A DNA stretch of 59,665 bases, the filler included, from Sphacelaria rigidula (Eukaryota): assembly GCA_964200075.2 (NCBI GenBank). It is 4 parts of 4 records of this genome, joined end to end, with 100 filler letters (N's around TTAATTAATTAA, not from the genome) between each part and the next. Parts side by side here need not be neighbours in the genome. Positions count along the whole stretch, not along the records: positions 29,891 to 44,728 come from CAXNAA020002022.1; 3 more parts are not named here. One strand, 5' to 3'. The notes under the pieces were generated by a model. It did not search any database, was not told the origin of the DNA, and saw only the letters and a program-made list of their open reading frames with translations. Below, in pieces: positions 49 to 59,620 of this stretch. The stretch's first letter is position 1; each line of letters begins with the position of its first letter. Position numbers and translations under genes: made by a program.

Positions 49-140
49 GGGGGGGGGGGGGGGGGGGGGGGGGGGGTGCACTCATTTGTTGCTTGCCTTA
101 GTCGTTTGGCCATTGACCACGAATCCCTTTCGAGGCGGGG
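49..140 (-). mobile_element. 3' end of LINE retrotransposon with 28-nt C tail (G28 on + strand)
   Basis: ACTCATTTGTTGCTTGCCTTAGTCGTTTGGCCATTGACCACGAATCCCTTTCGAG matches the 3' end of the RT-bearing LINE at 34819-36446 and the copies at 29718-29790 and 33407-33449; G run at 49-76. Confidence 0.75.
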
Positions 141-193
141 GGGGGCTCCGTGTCGACTTTTTTCTCTCGACAGACGCTTATGTGGTACGAAAA

Positions 194-20470: not shown

Positions 20471-23400
20471 CTACTTTTCCTCGTCCTGCAATGGAGAGAC
20501 AACTACCCTAGCTCTCGACAGTCTATCCGCGTAAGGTAACTCCGACATCCCTCGTGCCCAACCACCTGAGGGTACCGCTACCACCACCGTCTCTGCGCCG
20601 CGGTGCACGCCGGTGAAGCCCGTAAGATCCGAAAGATTGCGACGTCTTTTTACGTCGGCCTTCACGCCACTTTGCCATCTGTCGGTCAATGGGCCAAGGT
20701 GGGAACGGGCAGAAAGTAGGGCAGAAGGGAGTGGAACGATTCCGCGACCGCATTGCTGTTGGGGAGGGTGGAGGGGGTTGGAGAGGGTGGAGGGGGGCGG
20801 ACAATGTGAGGTGTAAAAACGTTGACACTTCTTCTCGTTGAAATTTCCCATGCAAAAATCTTGTTTTACAATACTGAAATCAAATTTCGCATGCTGGGGT
20901 TGTTTTATCAAATGTGCTGACTACTGTGCGATATCTGCGTCTGCCGGGCTTATGATGAGCGACTGTTGTGGCGTGTGAAACGATGGGGTCAAGAGTGAAC
21001 TGGGCATCCGCTGACGTGGGGACGTACTCATTTTTTCACGATGCAGATACAAAATATTCAAGCTCAAAACTAATATGCTGCATGCTAGCGTCTCCACCTT
21101 TGTGCTAGTTTGATTCATGTGGTGCGAATCGCCGGCGTCTATTTGCGATCTCCGCTTACCTGGACTCGATGTCCACCTCTATGGACGGTGTTGCTTCGTC
21201 GAGCGCCATATCGAGGTAAAATCCCTTGCTGCGATACCTGTATCCCTCCCGCCAGTAGGCCTCCTCTGGTCCAATTCGGATGGCGTGTTCGAACGCCTTG
21301 AAATACAGAAAAAGACGGATATACACACGCTTTTGATGCTAACGGGGGATTTGCCGGAATGTCCACAAAGAGTTACCAAGCTAGTGCAGTGCAGGATGAC
21401 AAAATAACTGTGGTAGTACTTGAACATCACGCGAAACCGTAGACACGAAAACATCAGGGGAAGTTTCAACAATTAGCATCATGGCGAAGTCCAACAGCGT
21501 GAACTTCTCATATGCGCATGCTTGCTCAGTCAACCTCAGCAGCGGGAAAATAGCACTGCACCATCGTTCAGTATTTGTCTTGTTCCGCACCTGCCGACTG
21601 GCCGTAAACTGACGCTTGAATGCCAGTACCCTACCCAAATCACGAAGTCGTTTGCCTTGTTCACTCTCCAAATATATTTCCCTGCCCAGAATCTCGCCGC
21701 TCTCGATCTCTGGCCCTACTGAGGTCACGCTACCCCGAATGGGCAACACGCTCTCCAGCGATGGCATCAGCGATTCCCGAGCACTGCAAGAGCTACCGTT
21801 TTGAGCGCATGATTCTCCTGGTGGTGCACCGTTTGCTTCAGTTTGTACGCCCATTGCCGTTCCCTTTGTCGACGGCAGCTCACGCCCAATTTCGGTCGGC
21901 TGTGGTGGGTGCGAATGTAGAGACGGTGGTGTACGGGACTCTTTGTCGCAGAGCTTGTGCAGAATGGACGCGTGTAGGTCGGCCAACGCTCCGGCGGATT
22001 CCGTGAGCCATGCGCCTTGGTTCGTCGCTTCGTTTTCGACTAGCCCTTCGTATCGGAGTAGCGTCTCGTGAACTTCCTTCTCAACCTTCAGGGTTCCGAA
22101 TACCGCGTATGGCGCAGGTTGGTGACCACCACAAAGATGAGTATAGACGACGGTGAAGTACACATGGAATGAGAAAATAGTGCTTGAAGTTGCGTGTGTT
22201 CCATACGCTGGATATAGTCGACCGAAGTTGAATGCCGTCACCCGTTCCATAATATATATATATATATATATATTCGTCACACTTTTCGACCCCGCTCCCC
22301 CCCCTTTCCTAGGGATGAGTCCGTGGTCTCAAGGGTTCTGCCCCATCTGTCCCTCGGTACACGCCTTGCATTTTGGTAACCCGAATCGGGTCAGCACTCC
22401 CGCACCGCGTCAACCTTCGTCAAATAGAATTTTTCCCCTACTCATGCTCTCACATTTTTCAACAACGGAGATCAGATATTTTGAGGAAAGAACAGTTCGA
22501 CCTGTCGGGAATCGACCTAGTTGGTGGCCCATGTAACATGATAGATGGACTACCGGTACGCGGCGGCTACGTTGGTTCAGTGTATATGTAACCTTACAAA
22601 GGCGATGCGATTCTTCACAAAAACGAGAAAACTGAACGAAGAGCTGATCACGGGAGAGACCAATAAACCTGCGTGTGCTCGTCATCTTCTCCCTCGCCAT
22701 CACCATCACACATGCCGAGCCGAACCCTCGCCGCCTCAGCGGCCGCCACGGGTTGTTTTAACTCTAGCAGACACTGGTAGACACCCGTCGCCGCCCGCTT
22801 CCTTCTGGCGGTTTCCAAATCCTCTTGCACGCGCTTACGTTCAGCTTCCTCATCCTGCAAAGCGGCCACAGCTTTGGCTCGAGCCTTTTCATCTAGTAGC
22901 ATGAGCTTCCTTTGTTGAGTCTCCTGCTCGTCTCTCTCTTGCTGAGTCGGGATATGTTCTGCTTTCTCATGTGTGTTTTTGGGGAAATTTGCTTCACCGT
23001 AGATTGTGCATATTGTCAAAAGGTGGTAACGTACACGAAATGCGATGCGACTGCTCTGTCTCTAATGTGTACCCGCCTTCAGGAATGAAGATGAGATGAG
23101 CAGGCATTTGCAACAAAATCGCAGCGACTCAATTGCAGGGCGACAGAACAATACAGTGGCAATTGCAATACGATTCTAGCGGCGAAGTAAACTCGAACGT
23201 GCGAGTATATCGTAGCAGCTACACGGGGCTAAAGCAACCAGCAACCGCAAATCCTTCATACATGGCGAGCGTTTGCTCTACAAGAGAAAATAGTCCATGG
23301 TTGGGAGCGTTGTCGTAACTGCGGTAAAACTGCAGTCATCACCCGGCGGAAGAACATACGGTTATATCTGACATGACGACTTCAACGTGGATATAACAAC

Positions 23401-24878
23401 CCCACACGTGCAAAACTCCGGACATATGATGTCCCATACATGAGATGTGTTTTACGTGACAATTTCGTTCATGTTGGCACTTGCGCCTTTGTTTCGTTGA
23501 TGTGTGTTCAAAAGGAGCCGGCTGCGGTCCGTTCCCTCTCCGCGACGTCACGTCAGATGGATCGCCTATTGAAGACCAACATCTCTTGACGCAGAAATTA
23601 CGACAAAGGACTTCTCGTTTATCATCCACTTGAAATACTCGAAATGTTCGCGGTGCTCGTGACCTGGTGCATGACAGACTTGAGGGAGGCGTGAGACGTC
23701 GGGGGGATTCACATCCAGCCATCAAGATAACCGAGATATACACAACTTGAACTCCAGGAGCTGGGTAAAACGATCTGGTCAGCTGACGACGCTAATCAAT
23801 AGTCAGAAATGTACGGCCATCACTCCGCTGTCTTGCATACCATACCGGCGGAGATTGCCATTTTCTACATACGGTGTGATCGAGTATTGTAGCACGCTGT
23901 ACTGATTCTCCCATCAAAAGATCACTTTTACTGAGAATCTCACTGACAACGATTTCCTCGACAGAGGAAGCAATCGGCAGGATAAGGAAGATGACTGAAT
24001 GCGAATAGCTCACCAGGTGAGGGTCTCACAGCGATCTGAAAATTCTTGAGGGCATTTGCGGGATCGGACATAACAAGATTCAACACGGCCATCTCCAACG
24101 CAACATCGTGGCGTTCGCGAGGTGTTCCCCGCACCATCCTTGATCGAAGCTCCCCGATTCTTGTCATTGCTAGGTTTAGGTCGAGTCTTTCCACGCACGG
24201 CCGCTGTTGTTTGCTGTTACCAGTTGCTTGCTTTTTATGCTTTCGTTGACGAGTTCTCAATGTTCGTTGTGTGGATGTTGTCGTGACAGACTTGTGGTTG
24301 CCATGACAGTATTTTCTCGACGAGTTCCGATCACTCGAGCCCGGTGCCGAAGACGGTTTCACCGCGGGATGCAAACGACTCGAAGCATACGGTTGTTGTC
24401 GTGGTTCATCAGCTGATTCAGATGTAGGAAAGTCATCTACCCCTCGATTGTCCGTCGCTAGTGGTGCCGTATCCTCACGCGAAACTCTGCTGCTTGCACT
24501 CATTGCTGGGATGTCGATCACGGGTGACTTGACTGCTTCGTGCTTGGGGCGTACTCGTGACCGAGAAGCAGCATGATGGCGCGTGCCGTGCAACGGCTTT
24601 GCTCGGGAACATTTTGTGCTACCAAGGGGATCCACTGACAACTTAGCAAAGCCCCTACCGTTGGCACAAGACGCGATGATACGACGCTGTCTACCTGCCC
24701 ATTGAGCCTGGTCCTGCTCTTCGGCGCGCAGAAGGTCTTGGACAGAACGTACGAACCTGCAGGCATTTAATCCAAGCGACATACGCACGCGGAGCTGCTG
24801 AGGTCGCCCGACGACGCGATCTTGATTAACATTCATGTTGCGATAATCTATGCCGTGTAGATCATACGTACGCAACAT
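20471..24878 (-). CDS. Multi-exon TPR-motif/coiled-coil protein of unknown function (5' structure uncertain)
   Basis: Phase-consistent exons 22991-22669, 22085-21591, 21296-21160, 20678-20471 (stop). Splicing creates a TPR-like motif LRDLGRVLAFKRQFTASRQ|AFEHAIRIGP. Upstream ORF 24878-~24030 has a second TPR-like helix pair (DVALEMAVLNLVMSDPANALKNFQIA); exons in 23000-24000 unresolved. Confidence 0.65.
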
Positions 24879-25305
24879 TCGCCGAAATTAATTACGGCCA
24901 CCAGTTCATACCACAGTGCAGTAGCTATCCTTGGTGTGCTCTTTGAGTTGGTACGAAGATGTGTCGGCGGCTTTGTTTTCAATCATGCTTGGGGCGGACG
25001 CAGAGAAGGCGTGTAGTTGCTTGTCCCGGTATACGAACATTTTACATATTATCCAACACTTCCGCATCCCACTGAACCGCAGCGGGCACAGATAACGTAA
25101 CGACAGCACATCTCGTCATACCATTATCAAATCACCCGCTGCTTATTCCTCGGGACGAACCCAGAACCTCGAGGGATCAACCCATCTCTCGCCAGGCAAA
25201 TTTTGGTGTGGTGGATTGGATCAGCACTGCCGCACGGCGTCGACCCTGTCGCCCAATTTTATTTCTGCTCATGCCCTCTTCTTGCTCTCCACGACGGAAA
25301 CCAAG

Positions 25306-29717: not shown

Positions 29718-29790
29718 GGGGGGGGGGGCGTACTCATTTGTTGCCTGCCTTAGTCGTTTGACCATTGACCACGCATCCCTTTCGAGACGG
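29718..29790 (-). mobile_element. 3' end of the C-tailed LINE, cut by the contig end
   Basis: G11 (29718-29728) followed by CGTACTCATTTGTTGCCTGCCTTAGTCGTTTGACCATTGACCACGCATCCCTTTCGAGACGG. Confidence 0.8.
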
Positions 29791-33394: not shown

Positions 33395-33461
33395 ATGAGG
33401 AGTGGGCGTACTCATTTGTTGCTTGCCTTGGTCGTTCGACCATTGACCAATGAGGAGTGGG
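33395..33461 (-). mobile_element. 43-bp 5'-truncated LINE insertion with 12-bp target-site duplication
   Basis: ATGAGGAGTGGG at 33395-33406 and 33450-33461 flanks the LINE terminus at 33407-33449. Confidence 0.8.
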
Positions 33462-34377: not shown

Positions 34378-36471
34378 CTTCCTCTGCCCCATAAGTTAGG
34401 GTATTTGGATTTACAAGCAGCGTTCGTCCCAACAGCGTGTGTGTACGACACTAAGGTTGTTGTCCTTCGAACTGTAAAACGTAAGGGAGACCGATAAAGG
34501 GAAAACAATCCGATGACTAATTCTAGGAATATTTGGAAATTTGTCTGGATTTGTGTTAGGGTATTTTTGAGAACAAGCTTCCAGCGATGCGGAGGACACG
34601 CAACTTTCAAGAAAAAAAAATGCTTCCAGAATAGGGTGCGAAAAATATCCATTTTCAGGGATCTGTTTTTTTCCGGCCGTTTGGCCGCAGGTTAAAAATG
34701 ATGAGGATGAATAAAGGGGGCTTCAAGCCAAGAATGCCGAAGAAACGAGATCAAAAACAACCTATTCGTAGTCGACACGGTTTGAGGACCCGTGGAAACC
34801 CAAGACCCTAACTTATGGTGGGGGCGGGGGGGGCGTACTCATTTGTTGTTTGCCTTCATTTGACCAGTGACCATGCATCCCTTGCGAGACAGAGCATCGT
34901 TTCTGCTCCTAATAGAGACACCTCCAACGATTGGGCGCTCATTACGTGTCTTCCCTACTTTACACAAAAACCTTCTACATAGCTTATCCCCTTTCTGATT
35001 CGCCGTCTCTGGCCACCATCCATCTCCTTGTATAGCCATCATTTCCTCGCTACTGTCTAATGCAATAAACGAGTTCATGCCACGTTCATTTACTTTCCGC
35101 ATTTACCTCTCCAACACGTCCAGTTCTTCTTTGTATAGTTCACATTTTGCCACTCTATGAGTTCTACTCTGTATTGATTTGCCACGGGGGCAATTCTGTG
35201 CATTGGCTTCCTCCTCCACTCGACTACTGGTATACTTCTTCCTTCTTTCTGTCAGGTCCAGATCTCCCACCCGAAATCGCAGTCTCATTTTTTTCGCGGA
35301 GTCCGTTGGGTCAGCAAATATGTTTCCATCCCCTTTCCTTTTCTAAACCCCCCGTATATCTTCAGGTAATCTTCCTCGTCTACTTTCCGATTTAGCGCTT
35401 CTTTTCCCTTATTTCTAGCATATCTCTTTTTTCGCCTTGTACTAGCCACATTCACCTATGGACACTATTCCGTCTTTGTGTCCTCGTATGCTCTTCCATA
35501 TTTCCTCGACTTCTTTATCCCCACCTTATTCTTGCCTGCTTTTTCATCGCTTTTTCCATGCGGCTCTGTCAACTGTTGCTGTGGGTACAATCCCAACTCT
35601 GCTCCTAATGCTGTTTCACTCGTCATGTTTGAACATGCAAGAATTTTCTTAGCTGCTGCCATCTATACTTTTTGTAGCTTCTCCACCAACTTCGCGTTTC
35701 CCTCTCATACTCCTCCTGCATATTCTAGCTTTGGTACAATCACATTCGTCAGAATACGTAGCTGAATCCTTGTATCTGGGTGCGAGTCTTTTAGGACCAC
35801 GTCCATCTTGCCTATCTGTACCTCACCCTTTTGTGTTACCTTTTTAATGCATGGATCCCAACAACATTTTTGTTATATCTATGCGCCAAGGTATGTATAC
35901 TGCTACTAGTCTACGCTTGACAGTTTCTCTTTTACCCATTCCCATTTGAACTCTGACGGGTTTTACTTGTCTTCGTTACATACAAGTACCGCGCAATTGT
36001 TTACACTGACCGTCACTCTCCATTTCCTGGTGTATTGTAGCGCCCTCTCTGCTTGCTCCTACACTCCATCTGGTGTTTCTGATATCCCCATAAAATCATC
36101 CGCAAACGTCAATCCCGATACCGTATATTCCCCCGCCTTGACTCCTTGCTTTTCTGCTTCTATTGTTATCACCAAGCCACTAATAAATACGTAAAAAAGA
36201 GTGGGTAATAACGTACATTCTCGTGCAACTCCTTGCAAAATATACAAACATTTCGATATTTTCCCGTCGAGCATCATAGCACTTTTGGCACATTCTGCCA
36301 TCTTTGCCATTCTCCACATCTTTCCTCTGATACCAGTTCCCCACAACATTTTTCACAGCCCATTCCTTCATACTGTGTCATAGGCCGTTTGTACGTCTGG
36401 AAAGAATACGTTATCAGCCCGACGTTTTCCCTGCCTCGAATAGTATACCCTAACTCATGGGACAGAGGGAG
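34378..36471. mobile_element. Stowaway-like (Tc1/mariner) MITE interrupted in its right TIR by a LINE
   Basis: Left TIR CTTCCTCTGCCCCATAAGTTAGGGT (34378-34402); right TIR ACCCTAACTCATGGGACAGAGGGAG (36447-36471) followed by TA. Confidence 0.7.
34819..36446 (-). mobile_element. 5'-truncated degenerate LINE (RT, C-terminal CCHC-like region, C tail) with 14-bp TSD
   Basis: GIRGKMWRM, ILQGVARECTLLPTLF, GLTFADDFMGISET, LRFRVGDLDL...CPRGKSIQSRTHRVAKC; ORF stop at 34839-34841; TSD ACCCTAACT(T/C)ATGG at 34805-34818 and 36447-36460. Confidence 0.9.
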
Positions 36472-43924: not shown

Positions 43925-44672
43925 TGACAAAGAATTATAAAAAGAAATCAACGCGTGGGCAGAGACAAATGTAGAGACGTCGAAACGGAAGGATAGAGGC
44001 TCGAAAATTTACAATTGCAGAGAGAGTTTACTAGAGATGAAGTAAAGGAGTGCGTAGCTAAACTCAAGAACAGAAAGGCAGCAGGGGCAGACGGAATAGT
44101 AAATTAATGTATCTGGGGGAAAAGGAATGATTACCATGATGGTCGTGCTGTACAACTGGATCTGGGAAAACGAGTACACACCCAAGAGGTGGAGAGAAGG
44201 AGTAGTCGTCCATCTTTTCAAAAAAGGAGACAAAAGGAGACAAGGCTGACCCAGGAAACTACAGAGGGATAACGCTACTGAGCACGGTAGGGAAAACATT
44301 ATGTAAGATTCTGAACGATAAGAGCAGGAACGATGCGAGAAAAGGAAGACAAAATCAGCGAGGGACAAGCAGGATTTAGACCAAACCGTAGTTGCGTAGA
44401 CCATGTGTACACACCGGGCTGACAAGTAAGATTATTCAAGGTAGGAAAGACACCGGGCTGACATCGTACTGTTTCTTTCTAGACGTGCAAAAGGCTCATG
44501 ATGCAGTATGGAGAAATGGGTTGTGGAAAAAGTTGTGGGAAGCTGGGATTGGAGGAAAGATGTGGAGAATGGTAAAGAAGATGACAGAATGTGCCAAAAG
44601 TGTCATGATGCCAGACGGGGAAATATCGAAATCTTTGGATATCTTACAAGGAGTTGCACAAGGATGTACGCT
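43925..44672 (+). mobile_element. LINE reverse transcriptase fragment, same family as 34819-36446
   Basis: EVKECVAKLKNRKAAGADGI, LFKKGDK, DPGNYRGITLLSTVGK, EGQAGFRPNRSCVDH, FFLDVQKAHDAVWRNGLW, QGVAQGCTL, with frameshifts. Confidence 0.92.
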
Positions 44673-44728
44673 ATATAGCCTCTGCCAGACGATCTGGACA
44701 AGAGGGCTATTCAGTGAGGGACTTCTCC

Positions 44729-49757: not shown

Positions 49758-52290
49758 ATCCCGAACACGACCTACCCGGCTAAGGTTGACGATGAAAGCC
49801 CGACTACACGAAAAAGCAGACACAAGGGGTGCAACCCCCGCAGGACTATCCTGGCGAACCGATGCTGGGATAAAGACGAGGTACGTGATAATCTCGTTCC
49901 GATGCTGTTGTGTTGCAGAGCCCGATTTTCTTCGCACCAGGACAATGGGCTACAATATTCGCCACAATTGCCGTCGGAAAACGAAGCCCCTCCCGAGCAC
50001 TATTGGTGTCCCAAATCTATTTGTGGCGGTGGTTTCTATCGATACAGCGCTCATCAGTTGTATTAAGGGCAGCAATAGAGATTGATCGATATTTCCCAGA
50101 GTCCATTGTGGTAGCCGATGCCTACCGAAGCTAGTTGTCTCAATAGACTGTGGTGGAAAGTGGTGGTGGCGACATGGGCGACGATGGCTCGTACAACTCG
50201 GCTTCATTCCAGTCTGATGGTGAAGGTGGGGTTGACGACGGCGTCCAGTGCAGCACGGGTTTATCCAAGATACTCTGGGTGTTGTTTCTGCTTCATCGCG
50301 CTTACATTCTCCACGCTCACCAAACTCACTGCTCTCTTTTGTTAGCGTCAGGACGGCTCATCGGGTGGTGGTGGTGGTGGTGGTGGCGACATGGGGGGTG
50401 GCTGCGGGGCTGCCAGCTCCACTGAACACGGCGATACGAGGGGAAAGGATGTAGGGGCGCCAGCCTGTGTGCAGGAGAGTGGGGAGGGTCTCGAATGCGT
50501 GTGTGTGAGATGGGCGGGCCTTGCAGCTAGGGAATATATGGACGGAGAGTCACCAGGATGCCAAGGGTTGGATGCGAGAGGTGGCGGCAATTGCCTCCCC
50601 CCCCCCCCGACGTGAGCCACAGAACCTTCAGGTGAGAAAAAGAATAAATCCAGAAAAACAGAAACAAGGCTTTTCGGCTTGCCATGAATACGGGGCCGTT
50701 TTTGCTGCTGATCCATCCTGCTGCATGTGCTCCTACAGGTGTGCCACACCACATAACGCCACACACGTGCTGTCTCGTTCAAACACACGAGTTCCTTTGG
50801 AATCGCTTGGTTAGGTGTTTGGTTCCTGGATTGGAAGTTTCATCCCTCTCTCTTCATGTATCGTGACTGGCGGTGTGTGTGGAATCCGTGTGTCGAAAAA
50901 TAGAATACGTCACCAGATTGGTCTGGCTTGTTTCATCGACCCCATACCTTTCTGCTCACAAAGAAGCACGTGTGTTGGGAGATTATGTTCACGTGTTGCA
51001 AGAGCATACACTATCATTGCCAACGTAAAAAACTGGAGACTCTCCTTCCCGCCCAAGCAGCTCATTGTATGTGCGTGTGTTCTGCGCGTTTTTTTTTCTC
51101 TTGGAATATCAAAGTGTGGGTTATTTACACAACACTGATTCCGCCTCTCTCATGGTGTGGCGTGATACCTTGTCTGTATGCAATAGCAGACACCCAACAG
51201 CGAAAAGCCACACACGATGGGTCGGAGGATCTCAACACACGACGTACTGTACAAATCAAACTCATCCTCATAAATTCAGGAAGGAAAACGATATCGCTGC
51301 CGGTGAGGTCATCGATCTAACCAACTTCAAGGTATCGGATGAAAGCAGTAACGGAACCGGCTCCCGTCGTCCACGACATCTCCGATAGCGACAGACACAT
51401 AAATGGAGGAACCGGCGCCCGCCTTCAACGCGCCCGATGCGGAAGTGGCACAGATTGTCCGCCTGTGTATTCAACACGTCTCACTGCCAGCAAGTGGAAG
51501 CACGTTCTTGTTTTATGCGCGGGTGCTGCGCGCACGCATTTACTCTCTATCGGAACGTGTGCTTCCACACAGCACGCCTTGCTCGTCACAGTAGACTTTC
51601 CTAACAACACACACATTACAAATCAAAAACCCCGGCTGGGAAACTCCGAGATATCGGATGACGAAAGCAATCATGGCCCGATCACCGAAATCGAACTTGA
51701 AGACCCGGCTCTCGTCGTCCACGACACCTCCGACAGCGACACAGACTCAGAGTTGGAGGAACCGGCGCCCGCCTTCCACGCAGCCGATGCGGAGGTGGCA
51801 CAGATTGTCCGCCGCCGCCACCGCGTACTCTCAGCCGGTCGCGGGCCAAGCACATGAGGAATCTGAGCGACATTCCATGCAAGCTGACCGCGCGTCGCCT
51901 TGAGGACCACAACGACGCTCCCTGACTGTTGTTGCATAGTTCGTGCTTGAAAAGGGGGCGGCCATATGGCGCGATCAGCGGTGTGCTATTGGTGTTACGG
52001 TGATTTGGGGTGCTTGCTTGGATGTATTCATCGCGTGTTGCACGAGGAGGGTAGAATGTGTGGCCGGCGAGCTGTGGAGTAGTTGAAACATTCAAATGAC
52101 ACCCATTTTACACGATGGCGGGAAAGCAATACTTGTTGTGCCGCGGCCAGCTGCTCGAGGTCCATCCAGAAAGCAAAACACCTCTTTGCGAGTCACTGGT
52201 GTGCGCGTGATGATGGCTGTGCCCCGTGCCTTACTACAAGAAAAGTACGATGGTTTAAGCAAGCGATTTGAATTGGCGAACGTGGTGCCA
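49758..52290 (+). pseudogene. Copy A of a short-intron gene with an internally deleted PRTase-like last exon
   Basis: Candidate introns 49881-49940 and 50632-50738, acceptor at 51279. Peptides LQLGNIWTE, EPAPVVHDISDSD, AIWRDQ, LCRGQLLE, ESKTPLCESLV, CPVPYYK match copy B; many stops and indels. Confidence 0.65.
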
Positions 52291-52424
52291 AGCATTGTAT
52301 TATCAACCACAAATTCCCTCGTAAGAGCAGACCAAAAAGACGTCGCCCTGATTGAAATATCCGAGGGTAGGCGTGGCAACGTCTGCCATCGGCGGAATGT
52401 AGCAATCGGCGCATGACTAGTACA

Positions 52425-53252
52425 TCAAGCGAGCTTTGTGGGAGGCGCTGTGTAGACGAGCTTGCGCTTCTTGCCGCTCCAGTTGCTCAGCCGGTTCAAG
52501 TTGTCGGTCACGTGAACAGCAATATTGTTGAGCACCTTGTTCCTCCTTCTCTCATACAATTTCCTCTGCTCGGGAACGGGGGAGTCCTTGTAGCCAAGGA
52601 CACTCTCTGCGTGCTTCTCGAAATGATCGATGTAGCAAGGCGGGATTATCCCGGTGAACATGTTTACAGCTTGTTGGGTCTTCTTAACTAGGATTTGCAG
52701 GATCTCGACGTATGCCTCTTCCTTTGGGGCGGTTGTCCATCCATCGCGGCTACGACACAACCTGACTTTGTTGTACCCTTTGCATGCCCGGAAGTTCATG
52801 TTTTGCTCTAACGAGTACAGCTTTAACCCAAATTTGTAGAAGACATCGAGTCCAGGAAGGGATTTCAGTAAATCCGCGATGAACTCGCTGTTGATATGTT
52901 GCAATGACTCCTTTCCCGGAGGGTGCACGAATACAGCGGTAGTGTCGGCGTTGACGACAATGCTCTTGTTTGCACGAACAGGCTTAGATCGCCACTCCTC
53001 TTGCAGCTCGCCCCCAGGGGTAGAGTACAGGGCGATGTTGGTTATGACCATGTGGTCCTTCAATTCTTTGGTAAGCATGATGTCGGACATGTGCTCCGCG
53101 CTTTGCGCGTACACGTATACACTGCCGACATGATACCAGATACCTAGGTAGATAAGATTCGGATACTCCGTGCAGACAGGTTCCAACACGGTGCTCAAGT
53201 CAAAGCACGATGGGTTCGCCTTCACCCTGAGCTTCCTGTGACGCAGCGCCAT
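52425..53252 (-). CDS. Intronless 275-aa hypothetical protein, giant-virus-like (HPxGKESLxHI motif)
   Basis: Uninterrupted ATG-to-stop ORF; colinear diverged paralogue at 57261-58061 conserves many peptide blocks; AT-rich leader. Confidence 0.8.
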   Translation of the reverse strand: MALRHRKLRVKANPSCFDLSTVLEPVCTEYPNLIYLGIWYHVGSVYVYAQSAEHMSDIMLTKELKDHMVITNIALYSTPGGELQEEWRSKPVRANKSIVVNADTTAVFVHPPGKESLQHINSEFIADLLKSLPGLDVFYKFGLKLYSLEQNMNFRACKGYNKVRLCRSRDGWTTAPKEEAYVEILQILVKKTQQAVNMFTGIIPPCYIDHFEKHAESVLGYKDSPVPEQRKLYERRRNKVLNNIAVHVTDNLNRLSNWSGKKRKLVYTAPPTKLA

Positions 53253-53282
53253 TTATATTAGTATCATAAAATATTATTGCTC
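53253..53282 (-). promoter_or_regulatory. AT-rich upstream element (putative viral-type promoter)
   Basis: AATAATATTTTATGATACTAATATAA-ATG; similar AAAATATTTTGTGGTGATATTATAGA-ATG precedes the paralogue. Confidence 0.45.
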
Positions 53283-53284
53283 AT

Positions 53285-54055
53285 CTAGACGCACGGGGGT
53301 GGTGCCGAACGGTGGTGACAAGTGCAGGTTTTCTTACTCCCTATACAGGCGGTAAGTGGACTTTCTAGCATGAAATTAGCCACAGTCTTCGTCAAATACA
53401 CACATTCCTTCTCAGATCGAAGACGCGAAAATTGCTTCGTCTGAGACGCATGTGTGTCTTCGCGTCTTCGCTTCTCCGATCCGAGAGCCGGCAACACGAC
53501 TATCGTCGCGTCGATCTGACTTTTGGCTTGCGATATTAACGCTATCTGCTGGGCTACGGTCAAGGTGAACATCGTTCCGCTTTTCTGGTTTGGGACAAGT
53601 GCAGCTTCATCGCACCGTGCAGGCTGTAGCGGAAAAGGAAGAACTTCAACTAACGAGGCATAGCTTAACCGCCGTCGTTCGTGTGCTCGGGTGATGCACA
53701 ACGAGCTATCAATCTCTTGCAGTCTCAGCCTTGGTGATGCTACAGCTGCTAATTCTGGCGATGAAAGTGGTGTGTACGAGTCACGTTGGCTACCGTCGAG
53801 TTCCGAAATCGGGTTGATTTTTGACGCGCTGCTGAACCAACGCTTTTCTTTTGCGCACGAATCACTATCGTGTTTTTGTGTGCGAATAACAGTTTTCTCT
53901 GGCGCAATTCTGCTGCCTCTCGTAGAAGAAGAAATCATTGCCTGTATTTGCGCAGAGAGAGTGGGTGGAATGCTGTGCGTGCTTGCTGATGTCAAGCTTT
54001 GCCTCGTACTTAGGCTCCGACTGTTGCGACTGGCACCACGGTCAGTGCTTTTCAT
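53285..54055 (-). CDS. Intronless 256-aa Ser/Arg-rich hypothetical protein
   Basis: Open ATG-to-stop ORF ending 32 nt before the next ATG, AT-rich leader; no recognisable domain. Confidence 0.45.
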   Translation of the reverse strand: MKSTDRGASRNSRSLSTRQSLTSASTHSIPPTLSAQIQAMISSSTRGSRIAPEKTVIRTQKHDSDSCAKEKRWFSSASKINPISELDGSQRDSYTPLSSPELAAVASPRLRLQEIDSSLCITRAHERRRLSYASLVEVLPFPLQPARCDEAALVPNQKSGTMFTLTVAQQIALISQAKSQIDATIVVLPALGSEKRRREDTHASQTKQFSRLRSEKECVYLTKTVANFMLESPLTACIGSKKTCTCHHRSAPPPCV

Positions 54056-54070
54056 TTGAGGTAAAATACT

Positions 54071-54667
54071 TCATGAAAAAAATATGTCCTCAAAAGCGAT
54101 CATCGCCATCGTCCTTGTTGTGTTGCTGACCGTTACATGATCGCCCCTGTCGCGGGGTCTTACGAACTGTGTTTGTGCGTTGTTTTCAGTGGATCGCTGT
54201 TTCCTTTTTCTGTCTTTGGGAGAGTAGATAATTCTTTGTTTTCTTTGAAACCAGTTTCCGGCCCTTTCCCGGCGCTTGTACACACACTCTTCCTGCACAG
54301 GTTAGGGAGAAGCACGCCACGCGCGACTTCCCGTACTCTTCACGCGTGCCCTATTTTAGGTGCGGCTAGGTTGCGCGTTTAGATCCTCCGGGGATCTATC
54401 TTGTGCCGCGGCGGTGGTCCTTCTTTGCGCCGAAGCATCTCTTGTCGAAAAAGCGCCGGAGGTGAGGTTCAAATTTCATTGTTTCATTTCTAATCTTGTC
54501 ACGCGTGTGACACGATACACGCCTTCATTGCCAATGGGTTGACCTCGGAAAACTTTCTTCCCTTTGCTGAGTTGGGGGCAACCAAATGCCTTGAGCTTGG
54601 TTTGTTTTTTCTGTTCCCACCGCTCTCGCATTAGCATCAGCAGTACTAGTACTTTCAGCAACGGCAA
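54071..54667 (-). pseudogene. Possible decayed co-directional ORF
   Basis: ORFs 54476-54667 and 54071-54298 are in one frame, separated by a few stops; ends 15 nt before the next ATG. Confidence 0.25.
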
Positions 54668-54997
54668 CTAGTTGTGTTCTGCATGCCGGAAAATGCTTGT
54701 TAACGTCTTGGTCTGGTAGGTAAATGCGCTTTTCCTACGCTTGTCCGTGACATTTGTAGGTATTCAAAGTGTGTAAAAACATGCCGCGAAAGCAGTCTCG
54801 GTTTGCATATTTTTCTCCGAGTAGTGTTGCATTTTTCCGTTTGCCGTTGTGCGAATTTTGTGCGCCTCGCCATTTTCCCGCTCTCTTTAGCTCACGTACA
54901 CACACCCTCCCTCCGCCACAGGTTTCCTCCCGCTCGCCATAAACGACTTCCCGCACTCTAGACCCATGCCCCTCTTCGGCTCGGTTCTTGGATCGAC

Positions 54998-57246
54998 GTG
55001 GAGGAATTCGTGTATGTGATGGGTGATGGGCGGGTCTTGCAGCTAGGAAACATATGGACGGAGCCGGCATGCCAAGGATGGATGAAGATTTGGCGGCAAT
55101 TGCCTCCCCGACGTGGGCCACAGAAACCATCGGGTGAGAAAAAGATTAAATCCAGAAAAACAGAAACGGGTCCCTTCGGTTTGTCATGAATACGGGGAAA
55201 GGGGTCTATCGTTCTCGACACACACACGCACATCGGAGCTTTGACGAGCACATGCGTACTTGGTTTTGTTTTTCGTGGGTGTGAGAAGACCTTTGCCCCT
55301 TTTATACTGCTGATCCATCCTTCAGCATGTGCTCCTACAGGTGTGCCACACCACCTAACGCCACACACGTGCTGTCTCGTCCAAACACATAGTTCTTTTG
55401 AAATCACTCGATTAGGTGTTTTGTCCCTGGACTGGAACTTGCACCCCTCTCTCATCGTCGTGTATCGTGACTGGCGGTTTGTGTGGAATCTGTGTGTTGA
55501 AAACATAGAATACATCAGCAGATTGATCTGGCTTGATTCATCGACCCCATAGTTCCGGCTCACATAGAAGCACGTGTACTGGGAGATGCGTACGTGTTAA
55601 CACGATGTATACACTATCATTGCCAATATTTAATACATGAGATCCTCCTTCCCGCCCAAGCTGCAGTTCTGGCGGCAAAGCGGGAAATATTTGATTGTAT
55701 GTGCGTGTGTTCTGTGCGCTCTTTTTTCTCTCGGAATGATCAAATCGTGGGTTTGGGAAACAACACTGATTCCGCCTCTCTGTTGGTGTGGCGATGATAC
55801 CTTGTCTATATGCAACATCAGACATGCAACAGCAAAGACCCACACACAACGTGTCGGAGGATCTTAACACACACGACTTCCTGCACAAATCAAACTCATC
55901 CTCATACATTCAGGATGGGACATAACACAGACACCGTACTTGAAGAGCCAGCTCCTGTCGTCCACGACGTTTCCGACAGCGACACAGACACAGAAATGGA
56001 GAAACCGGCGCCCGCCTTCCACGCAGCCGATGCGGAGGTGGCACAGACTGACCGCCACCGCCGCCGCAACAGCAACGTCGGTCCCGTCGGCCCCCTCACT
56101 CCTTCACGGGCCAAGAGAATCAAGCGGCTGAGCGACCACCTCTCGCCGGCCATGTCGTGCAGGCTGGCGGTGCGTCGCCTCCACGACCACAACGACCCTG
56201 CCTGATTTGTCCTTGTTTATATGTTGTGCAGAGTTGTTGGTTGATACCGGGAAAGCTATCTGGCGCGATCAGTTATGTGCGGTACGGGAGTTTCCCGTTG
56301 ATACCAGAGCGTGCCTACCTTTTCTCGAGAGACAAAGGGAAATAAGTGGCGAGAATTCGTGCGTAGCGAGGGTTTTAGAGTGTTTGATTGAGTCCATTTG
56401 CCGCGCGTCGCGCGCGGAGTTGTTCGCGGGGATAGAGGATGTGGCGAGCCACCTGTGGAATAATCTAAAAGGATCAAACGATACTCGATTTTACGTTGCT
56501 CTTAGCGGCGACAGCCGCGATGTTTGCTTTTCCAAATCCACCATGTTTGTGTCTGTCATGATGATGGCGACAAATACACAACTCGCAGAATCATTCCGTG
56601 GCTTCCTGTGCCATGGGCAACTGCTTGAGGGTGTTAATTCAGATACCATACAGCACGTAGTGTATGCAGATGACGATTCGTTCTCGGGCTCACAACTGAC
56701 GGACGGAATTAGAGCTGTCCACGCATTTTTTGCGGATGCAGCCCATATAACTCTGCACATTGCAATCCTTTTCATCTCACCACAAACACGCCAGAAAGTA
56801 GAGAGTGATATGCCCGAATTCGGCAACACATTTTGGTACATTCCACAATACCAAAAACAACCAGAGTCTCTCGTTAACGCTCTTCGCCGCGTGCCGGGAG
56901 AAAATCTGATGGATTTCGCGCACAGATTTTTAGACCACGCTGATTTATTCTCCCACGGCCGTGACAGTGTGCTGAGCAGCCACTTGTCTATACTGATCTC
57001 GAGATGCCCGATCAGAAGTCTGCTCACCTCCACTTTCTGTTGGACCCACAAACACTCTCTTCAGAGAGCAACACACCTCTTGGCGAGTCGCTGGTGTTTG
57101 GGTGCACGCCGCCGAGCGATAACGAAGCCACTAGAAAGATGATGGCGGGAACACTTTGTCCCTTGCCTTGCTACAAAAGAGTACGGTGGTATGAGCACGT
57201 GCTTGAGATTAACGAAGATGGGGTAAAGCGGAAACGGAAGCTGTAG
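54998..57246 (+). pseudogene. Copy B: short-intron gene ending in a phosphoribosyltransferase-like domain, frameshifted
   Basis: Introns 55134-55340 and 56170-56233 (GTGCGT..CCTGAT..AG), acceptor at 55913. Last exon 56234-57246 has FSKSTMFV, HVVYADDDSFSGSQL, then after a frameshift near 56973 LVYTDLEMPDQKS and CPLPCYK. Confidence 0.7.
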
Positions 57247-57260
57247 ATCAAGCCAGGTGT

Positions 57261-58061
57261 TTAAACAAGCATGAGTTTCTCACCACTCCAGCTACGTAGC
57301 CGACTTAGCCTATCGTTGACGCTGACGGCGATTGTGTCCATCCACTTGTTTCTCCTCCTTTCATACAACTTCCTAAACTTGGGAAGGGAGCTTTCCTTGT
57401 AGTCAAGAGGACAGTTAGCGTACACATCGAAATGATTAAAGTAGTAGGCCGGTATGTCGTCCCTTAACATGATGACAGCTTGTTGGGTCTTCTCCACCAG
57501 GATTTATAGGAGCTCATCATAAGCCTCTTCCTTTGACACGGTGATCCACCCATCATCACAACGCACTTTGACATACTTGTAATTCTTTCGTGCACGGTAA
57601 TTGATGTTTTGCTCAAGGGCGTACAGTTTTAACCCGAATTTCAAGAACACGTTGATATTGAGCATTTGTTTCAGAAGATCCACGACGAACTCTTTCGTGA
57701 TGTGTTGCAGAGACTCCTTGCCCAGGGGGTGCACGAATATAGCCTTCGTGTCGGCGTCGACGACAGTGCCCTTGCTTGCGCGCAACGGTCTTGATCGCCA
57801 CTCCTCTTGTAGCTCACCCTCCACAGCAGAATACGGTGAGATGCCAACGCAGTCTATGTGCGCCTTCTCTAGTAGTCCCGTAAGAGTAAGGGCTGACATG
57901 CTCTCCTTGTTTTGCAAGTACAAACACACTTTAGCTTCCTGATACCATATCCCGAAGTAAATGAGACCCGGATACCTTTCGCGGACATGCTGTAAGATGG
58001 TGCATAGGTCAACACATGATGGGCTGGTCTGTGCCACGAGCTTTCTGTGACGCAACACCAT
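57261..58061 (-). pseudogene. Paralogue of the 275-aa gene with one in-frame nonsense codon
   Basis: YDELL*ILVEKTQQAV aligns with YVEILQILVKKTQQAV; TAA at 57504-57506 replaces Gln; otherwise 266 open codons. Confidence 0.8.
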
Positions 58062-58189: not shown

Positions 58190-59620
58190 GTTCCGAACCA
58201 GTTCAAATTTCTCTTTTGTACGGACAAGAGGTGCAGCATACCATTCAAGGTGGTGTTTGTCGTTATTGAGTTGGTATGTATATGGGAGGCAAATGCCTGA
58301 ACGATCGAACAATCCTACAACGGGCAAGCTGTGACACGTTTCTTTATGCACAAGAAGAACAACATATTAAGCTGTTCGCGACACATCCGGCAAACTTCCC
58401 TCATCCAAAATGAACTTGGATCCAAAACCCAGCTGTCCGGTTCAGAACCTCTTGACAGAATGGATGTCACCTTGATCGCAAGTTGGTTCATCTCAGGTCC
58501 AGCATTTGGCTACTTGTCATGCGTCTGGTGTATTAGATCACACCCTGATACACGTTTTGATACGACACCAAAATCACTGTACCCAATGTACGAAAACAAT
58601 ATAGATACGGGTGACAAAACCCCTCAAATACGACCACCACCATGAAGGACAAGGGAACACGGCCCTTTGTCTTACGGTTCTCTCACAAGCAGGAAGCTGT
58701 CTTTGAAACCAGCTGTCCGGTTCAGAATGTCTTGACAGAATGGATGTCGCCTTGATCACAAGTTGGTTCATCTCAGGCCCAATGTTTGGCTTCTTGTCAT
58801 GCGTCTGGTGTACTAGATCACACCCTGATACACATTTTGATACGAGACAGAAAATACGGTACCCACTGGATGGAAACAATATAGATACGGGTGACAAAAC
58901 CCCTCAAATGCGACCACCACCATGAAGGACAAGGGAACATGGTTCTTTGTCTTTCGGTTGTCTCAAAAGCAGTGAACTGTCTTTGGAACATACAAGTGCG
59001 TCAGTCTGGAGCAGTTCTGGTTTTCTCTTTTGTACAGAAAAGAGGCCGTAGCATACCATTCAAATGGTGTTTGTTATTATTGAGTTGGGTATCATAATGG
59101 GAGGCAAAGGCTTGAACGATCGGACACGCCCTTAACGGGCATGCTATGAAACGTTTCTTCCTGAACAAAAGGACAAAAACAGCACGCTGTTCGCGACGCA
59201 CACGGCGAGCCTGCCTCATCCACAGTGAGGTTGGATCCCAAAACTAGCTGTCCGGGATCCCTCGGAATGTCTTGACAGAATCGATATCACCTTGATCACA
59301 AGTTGGTTCATCTCAAGTTCAGTATTTGGCTACTTGTCGTGCGTCTGATGTGCTAGATCACACCCTAGTACATTTTTTTACACGAGACAGAAGTTGCTGT
59401 ACCCAATGTATGGAAACAATATAGATGCGGGTGGTGAAGTCCCTTTACTACGACCACCACCATGCAGGACAAGGGAACATGGTTCTTGGTCTTACGGTTT
59501 TCTCAAAAACAGGAAGCTGCCTTTGAAACCAGCTGTCCGGTACAGATCGCCTTGACAGAATCGATGTCACCTTGATCACAAGTTGGTTCATGGACCAATG
59601 TTTGGCTTCTTGTCATGCGG
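58190..59620. repeat. Higher-order tandem repeat [B-A-A][B-A-A'] with 280-bp A unit and about 815-bp period
   Basis: A units start at C(C/T)AGCTGTCCGG 58429, 58709, 59244, 59529 (last one partial); B segments about 58190-58428 and 59000-59243. Confidence 0.9.

Follow-up and report, generated by a model that had tools for sequence, protein, structure and literature searches.

A LINE with an oligo(C) 3' end that inserts into C-runs in the genome of Sphacelaria rigidula

Mammalian L1 elements have a poly(A) tail and A-rich targets. Other LINEs end in other ways. In UnaL2 and ZfL2, which are found in eel and fish, a stem-loop is bound and slippage takes place on the 3' repeat, according to the passages of PMC4176376 and PMC1636434 which deal with these elements. 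RTEX elements from green algae are reported to have repeats other than poly(A) at their ends, among them (CA)n, (CAA)n and (CCAT)n (Table 3 of PMC3747384). The closest described systems are RTEX-1_Ec32 and RTEX-2_Ec32 from Ectocarpus sp. 7, classified as LINE/RTE-X and listed with 'single EN-RT ORF; (C)n 3'' and a 'C-rich' TSD (PMC12477816, Supplementary Material 3, 2025). Their non-autonomous partners share the last ~60-100 bp (same paper). The C tail is already known, and what the present work may add is its mechanism and the short copies described below. We have found no account of this mechanism in print: the text passages of PMC12477816 contain nothing on the tail, priming, hairpins or 66 nt copies, and its Figure 1C or other supplements may show more. 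We have also found in print no numeric target rule, no two-hairpin module overlapping the coding region and no class of 66 nt copies. This is the one paper we have found on RTE-X in a brown alga. Our search found no paper on a poly(C)-tailed retrotransposon, a weak result, with most subscription journals and Repbase outside it.

We have analyzed a stretch of 59,665 nt from Sphacelaria rigidula (the window), made of four contigs with N linkers between them, together with related sequences elsewhere in this genome. An initial annotation had noticed a LINE family with an oligo(C) end in this window. The observation is real, and its interpretation is partly supported. The family is a genuine LINE with a high copy number, and it very probably belongs with RTEX-1/2 of Ectocarpus, to which it is likened by the listed description and by its proteins: the 90% cluster of one homologue (P0004) includes Ectocarpus proteins. 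Both have a single EN-RT ORF, a (C)n end, a C-rich TSD and thousands of copies, as well as partners which share their last ~60 bp at ~80% and are found in tandem. The (C)n trait is present here as the annotation had said, and among brown algal LINE entries it is already catalogued for RTEX-1/2 (PMC12477816). As to lengths, the longest Sphacelaria copies (L154 and L225) align over ~5.0 kb, with a 5' end which is not fixed, compared with 5.5-5.9 kb in the Ectocarpus lists, and the partner has ~320 bp, compared with 188 and ~605 bp.

The copy which was first noticed (34805-36460, Table 1) is an old, broken, 5'-truncated copy of an endonuclease-RT LINE. Its minus strand, from 36446 to 34834, corresponds to the 3' third of the ORF (residues ~814-1360 of a 1360 amino acid homologue). 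Three-frame translation of this body shows many stops and at least one frameshift, and its identity to five longer copies is 74-79% (blastn). The end of the frame reads as initially described: AAC AAA TGA (34847-34839) and GTACG (34838-34834) are followed by C8-G-C5-A, which reaches 34819. The terminal module has a 3 nt deletion and is 63 nt long, while most copies have 66 nt. The 14 bp repeat which flanks the copy is also present, but its two halves match at 13 of their 14 bases rather than at all of them.

Comparison with paralogous arms places this LINE in the C-run of the right arm of a small host element. Seven host-repeat arms were compared: four have C3, two have C4 (one of them is the left arm of the window's own element) and one has C2. 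At least 13 of the 15 tail bases of the copy therefore came with the insertion, because the empty arms hold at most C4. The host element is ~440 bp long without the insertion, with ~25 bp inverted repeats, and TA adjoins its right arm and most paralogous arms. We take it to be an element resembling a MITE of the Tc1/mariner type.

Table 1. Features of the window related to the LINE family. Strand is given as - for the minus strand and as a dot where no strand applies.
Position	Strand	Feature	Basis
34378..36471	.	Small element which hosts the LINE; its terminal inverted repeats are at 34378-34402 and 36447-36471	Inverted pair, paralogous arms
34834..36446	-	LINE body, 5'-truncated, RT core to C-terminus	tblastn with P0003, blastn
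34834..34896	-	Putative terminal RNA module: last ~20 codons, stop and GTACG	Sequence alignment
34839..34841	-	TGA stop of the single ORF	Translation
34819..34833	-	Tail, C8-G-C5-A	Empty paralogous host-repeat arms with C4 at most
34805..34818	.	TSD, 3' copy, starts with CC on the element strand	
36447..36460	.	TSD, 5' copy, 13/14 match, one extra C before it on the element strand	
49..145	-	Mini-copy of ~60 nt (77-136) with C28 tail (49-76) and C9 on its 5' side (137-145)	
29718..29790	-	3' end with C11 tail, cut by contig end	
33395..33467	-	Mini-copy of 43 nt (33407-33449) with perfect 12 bp TSD (33395-33406 / 33450-33461)	

Two other copies had been said to end in the same way. The C28 and C11 runs (49-76 and 29718-29728) are indeed found, on other contigs of the window. 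These copies have C tails, but the one which starts at 77 reads GTGCA instead of GTACG, and both are mere 3' ends of ~60 nt, the second of which (29729-29790) is cut by the end of its contig. A fourth copy, at 33407, had been overlooked. Its target holds C9, and its CCC lies entirely inside the TSD, with no tail beyond. In all, the window contains six matches to the 3' end with up to three mismatches (0.15 expected), two of which look like chance. A second broken fragment of the LINE, from the RT region (43926-44673, plus strand, residues ~638-880), stops ~55 nt short of the end of its contig.

Intact homologues have a single ORF coding for an APE-type endonuclease and an RT, with a C-x-C...H...C motif near the end. 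The ORFs of the long proteins have 1253-1426 amino acids, and Pfam finds Exo_endo_phos (PF03372) and RVT_1 (PF00078) in all five of them, with the endonuclease N-terminal to the RT. A search among solved structures gives matches just to the RTs of L1 and R2. In a metagenome set of 80 loci, many of them cut short or broken, three close relatives reach the stop codon, and they show the same TGA-GTACG end followed by C8-10. Their protein identities are 88, 75 and 51%. In a tree of 40 chosen, unnamed rows, these three C-tailed loci form one clade with three close proteins (100/99). In several distant metagenome loci, the ORF is followed by repeats of TGTAA or by (CA)n, (ACA)n, (TAC)n or (ATT)n. 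The RTE-X label should be taken as provisional, since it comes from PMC12477816, where it was drawn from best blastp hits; the passages of PMC5753468, PMC3905857 and PMC11203168 which touch on RTEX give no usable definition of it. Two other Ectocarpus families have been ruled out: RTE-1/2 have a (CAA)n 3' end where the Sphacelaria tail is C, and CRE-1 has an RT-EN order and a (CA)n end, where we find an N-terminal endonuclease and a C tail.

The last 16 nt of the element have 4225 exact copies in the genome (244 Mb in 27,214 contigs), while the reversed control has none. CCCCC follows directly in 2970 of them. A sample of 73 distinct copies at 70 loci, taken around the first 100 listed places with most contig-edge places skipped, was used to study the tails. 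The first ten bases past the element end are 81.5% C, and the leading C-run has a median of 7, with a range from 0 to 28. An A8 run is found within 100 nt downstream in just three of the 73 copies, and no downstream 10-mer (without N) is common to more than three. In this sample, neither poly(A) nor a conserved UTR follows the C-run, and the poly(A) tail of an L1-type relaxed LINE is absent. The family does have an oligo(C) end and a 3' UTR of 5 nt, as the initial annotation proposed. The bases which interrupt the tails (31 T, 17 G and 7 A, with 161 T, 98 A and 79 G as background) are scattered over many positions; they were examined as a possible sign of one master tail. Broken full-length copies of the LINE exist in this genome. 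A 63 bp tandem repeat with six copies lies upstream of the longest one (L154:5238-5619).

TSDs were studied in 89 of 214 copies with a perfect terminal 66-mer. Dropping 15 copies at contig edges left 74. A TSD was accepted only if it was junction-anchored, had 8 nt or more and contained four or more bases other than C; duplications made only of C were rejected. Clear TSDs, 8-21 nt long, are found in 28 of these 74 young copies, while 46 have none which passes the filter; the null rate of the TSD finder is 1/361. The TSD starts with C in 27 of the 28 cases, and on inspection also in the exception, L178, behind a rearranged junction. The 5' junction of L178 contains a repeat of 8 nt from the start of the module and of 8 target nt, as from a template jump. 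The C-run of the target, read from the 5' copy of the TSD, has at least three bases in 25 of the 28 copies and at least five in 21, while runs of these lengths cover 1.6% and 0.2% of window positions. A test which does not depend on TSD calls gives the same picture: C5 or longer is present within 25 nt upstream of 43 of 61 short copies (0 of 60 in the control stretch), and G5 is present in none of the 61. The element inserts into C-runs, with a fixed orientation throughout the sample.

How much of the final C-run belongs to the element can be estimated from the same 28 copies. Nine of them have no C beyond the target, and in all nine the 5' run is longer than the 3' run, which is what a nick within the target run would produce. 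The other 19 have 1-17 extra bases, and 122 of these 136 bases are C. Individual values of this excess are soft, because the length of a C-run does not stay the same after insertion and is affected by assembly from short reads. Part of the C-run is supplied by the element and much of it is target DNA; to this extent, the claim that the C-rich end is the element's own holds only in part, and in the nine copies the target already contained the whole run.

One might suppose that the element has no tail at all: it would stop at GTACG, and every C would belong to the target, with slippage making the run longer at initiation or afterwards. The nine copies without excess and their longer 5' runs fit this explanation, as do the window copy at 33407, which has no C beyond its TSD, and a median leading run of just 7. 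Nevertheless, tails of 11-18 nt on C1-C3 targets (L124, L081, L080 and L019) argue against it, and so do the 13 or more extra bases of the copy in the host element, whose empty arms have C4 at most. L040 is a further objection. It has an inverted G-run together with the element end at the 5' side, the one such case among 277 ends. This is a 19 nt copy (L040:255-304) within a 17 bp TSD, and its counterpart is seen in the 5' poly(T) L1 inserts of PMC2837659. We regard the absence of any tail as unlikely.

Another explanation would be a true analogue of poly(A): the RNA would be cut after GTACG, and a nucleotidyl transferase of the host or of the element would add untemplated poly(C). Such an enzyme could produce extra bases which are 90% C and variable in length, with nothing conserved past the C-run, but the tails are short, with their median of 7. 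Besides, an enzyme which polymerizes a single base could not make the (CA)n, (ACA)n, (TAC)n and TGTAA ends of distant relatives, and Pfam finds the endonuclease and RT domains alone in the long proteins. We consider this slightly less probable than the absence of a tail. That the runs are sequencing or assembly artefacts, such as poly-G calls, is very improbable and already largely refuted. It is true that the assembly is fragmented (27,214 contigs) and has a few very long runs, such as the one in L050 and the C28 near a contig start. On the other hand, the runs are equally frequent on both strands, recur in three metagenome contigs and lie between TSDs which contain unique sequence, and (C)n appears in the curated long-read annotation listed in PMC12477816.

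Our preferred interpretation, with a probability of about 0.7, is that this is a stringent LINE of the RTE-X type, which would prime through G:C pairs where L1 uses T:A and would recognize its 3' end as other stringent LINEs do. The starting point would be a protein from the one ORF seen in intact relatives, with an APE-type endonuclease and an RT, which ends 5 nt before the C-run. This protein would grip a two-hairpin RNA module within its own last codons. The G-rich strand would be nicked in or beside a run, consistent with the insertion into C-runs on the element strand, always in one orientation, with the TSDs described above. The 3' G's of the nick would pair with a short oligo(C), copied into the RNA from the genomic C-run of the parent, and the pairing register and slippage would set the number of extra C's (0-17). 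The bias could come from a preference of the nuclease for G-runs, or from G-run nicks being the only ones able to prime. Each insertion would leave new C-runs to be reused later. In fact, six of 63 short copies are nested in the C tail of another element. The last and weakest step concerns the ~66 nt copies: they might derive from RNA trimmed to the edge of the protein-bound module, or from an RT which halts there. The unusual transcript end suggested by the initial annotation is not required, as an ordinary transcript which holds the C-run of its parent would suffice.

The likeness to mammalian L1 is considerable: a homopolymer tail matches a homopolymer target, the TSD starts with the tail base, and an inverted tail is occasionally found at the 5' end. 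The Sphacelaria LINE differs in using G:C rather than T:A, in its one ORF and short tail, and in an apparent sequence-specific recognition of its 3' end. If this is true, the pairing of tail and target in LINE priming can switch to G:C and does not depend on poly(A) or A-rich repeats.

The last 66 nt of the element code for the last 19 residues and the stop codon, and they seem to behave like an RNA signal as well, to judge from alignments. Two hairpins with a conserved linker are found here by hand alignment, both in the LINE and in a SINE-like partner. This partner is a non-coding element of ~320 bp which ends in GAGTAC-A-(C)n, with 3333 exact ends (for example in L132, L133 and L152), and its 3' end shows 77-83% identity with that of the LINE over ~52 nt. 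ARAGORN found no tRNA head in four partner loci. The partner copy of L133 is placed in the C tail of a LINE and has its own TSD.

Hairpin 1 is paired in L224, L225 and L228 and in partner copies which are intact; its loops have 4, 9 and 13 nt, and L228 has one two-sided change which keeps the pairing. Both hairpins are also present at the end of the ORF in the distant LINEs L227, L259 and L262, whose proteins have 31-37% identity. Other bases are paired there, so that both hairpins of L227 and L259/L262 pair through two-sided changes. Loops range from 2 to 13 nt overall. In these three loci (L227:3089-3153, L259:3625-3685 and L262), the module is followed by AT-rich or TGTAA repeats. Some results are less favorable. 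Hairpin 2 of L228 has one mismatch, and three partner copies out of five have a broken pair in hairpin 1. Folding of single sequences gives nothing striking: z ranges from +1.1 to -2.2 over eight folds, and most energies are no better than those of shuffles. MAFFT unaided did not recover the hairpin alignments. Two upstream strands compete for pairing with the terminal GAGUAC, so that the closing helix has two alternative registers. A hairpin descriptor finds 8 matches, where the reverse strand gives 3 and shuffles give 2.1 on average, and a C-terminal peptide trace is found in 16 of 148 distant proteins and in 36 of 1184 control windows; both descriptors were composed after seeing examples (L227 and L259 for the hairpins). 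The last 409 nt of L228 match the S. rigidula genome just over the last ~76 nt, which speaks in favor of the module and against a second subfamily of the L228 type in this genome.

A 3' stem-loop common to the LINE and its partner SINE is a feature of stringent LINEs, and it is found here by hand alignment. In UnaL2 and ZfL2, as described in the passages cited above, a SINE-shared 3' stem-loop is likewise followed by a short repeat where the RT starts with slippage. There, the stem-loop is in the 3' UTR and the repeat is UGUAA, while in Sphacelaria it overlaps the end of the coding region, the repeat is C and the target is a C-run. By analogy with these elements, the LINE protein may bind the stem-loop. 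The module is a candidate for a very short RT-recognition RNA, whose parts could be swapped in an assay.

Many copies contain little more than this module. We have measured 65 copies away from edges and gaps: 37 of them have 58-72 nt, with a mode of 66-67, while 13 are shorter and 15 longer, although long copies may be underestimated. The density of this class is ~8 times that of shorter copies and more than 20 times that of slightly longer ones. Of the 74 copies with perfect 66-mers, 63 stop there and 11 are part of longer copies. This boundary is also where the predicted fold and the homology with the partner begin, and the 5' ends scatter over ~12 nt. Contigs from four public runs are of uncertain kind, may come from this organism and are not suited to show the ends of RNA. 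Their summed depth peaks over the last ~90 nt, and each edge of the module has loose G-rich ends. The Ectocarpus tables list RTEX-1 copies of 132-3244 bp (in 25 of 44 rows), but these rows were picked by small-RNA change and are no test for 66 nt copies.

Instead of truncations, the 66 nt copies might be a self-propagating mini-element, with its own RNA, transcribed or cut out, and mobilised in trans. The abundance of the 58-72 nt class, the 63 perfect 66-mers which end at the same place and the loose ends in the four public runs would agree with this. The identical 66-mer is found inside the 11 longer copies, however, so there is no diagnostic base; the 5' ends are spread, no promoter is evident, and in three loci searched with Rfam up to an E of 5, no model of a self-cleaving ribozyme matches and nothing else is relevant. 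The mini-element seems rather unlikely. An origin by trimming of RNA to the part which a protein protects, or by a stop of the RT, would fit the absence of diagnostic bases. A bolder proposal, which we put forward only tentatively and as doubtful, is that the ~66 nt module exists as a separate RNA with a few C's, freed at the foot of the structure, either where a nuclease stops or through self-processing. Such an RNA would give TPRT a complete natural template, steered to G-runs by nothing but G:C pairing, and these copies would be a minimal retroposon without promoter, derived from the coding end of its own LINE, with a two-hairpin fold older than the C tail.

The many C/G runs of this genome, and its stacked repeats, may have one of their sources in insertions of this kind. 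Other features of the window include 280 bp spaced repeats (58273-59619), a duplication with a spacing of ~4.2-4.8 kb (50623-57843) and three open frames, at 21381-22328 and 23940-24887 (315 codons each) and at 56132-57142 (336 codons).
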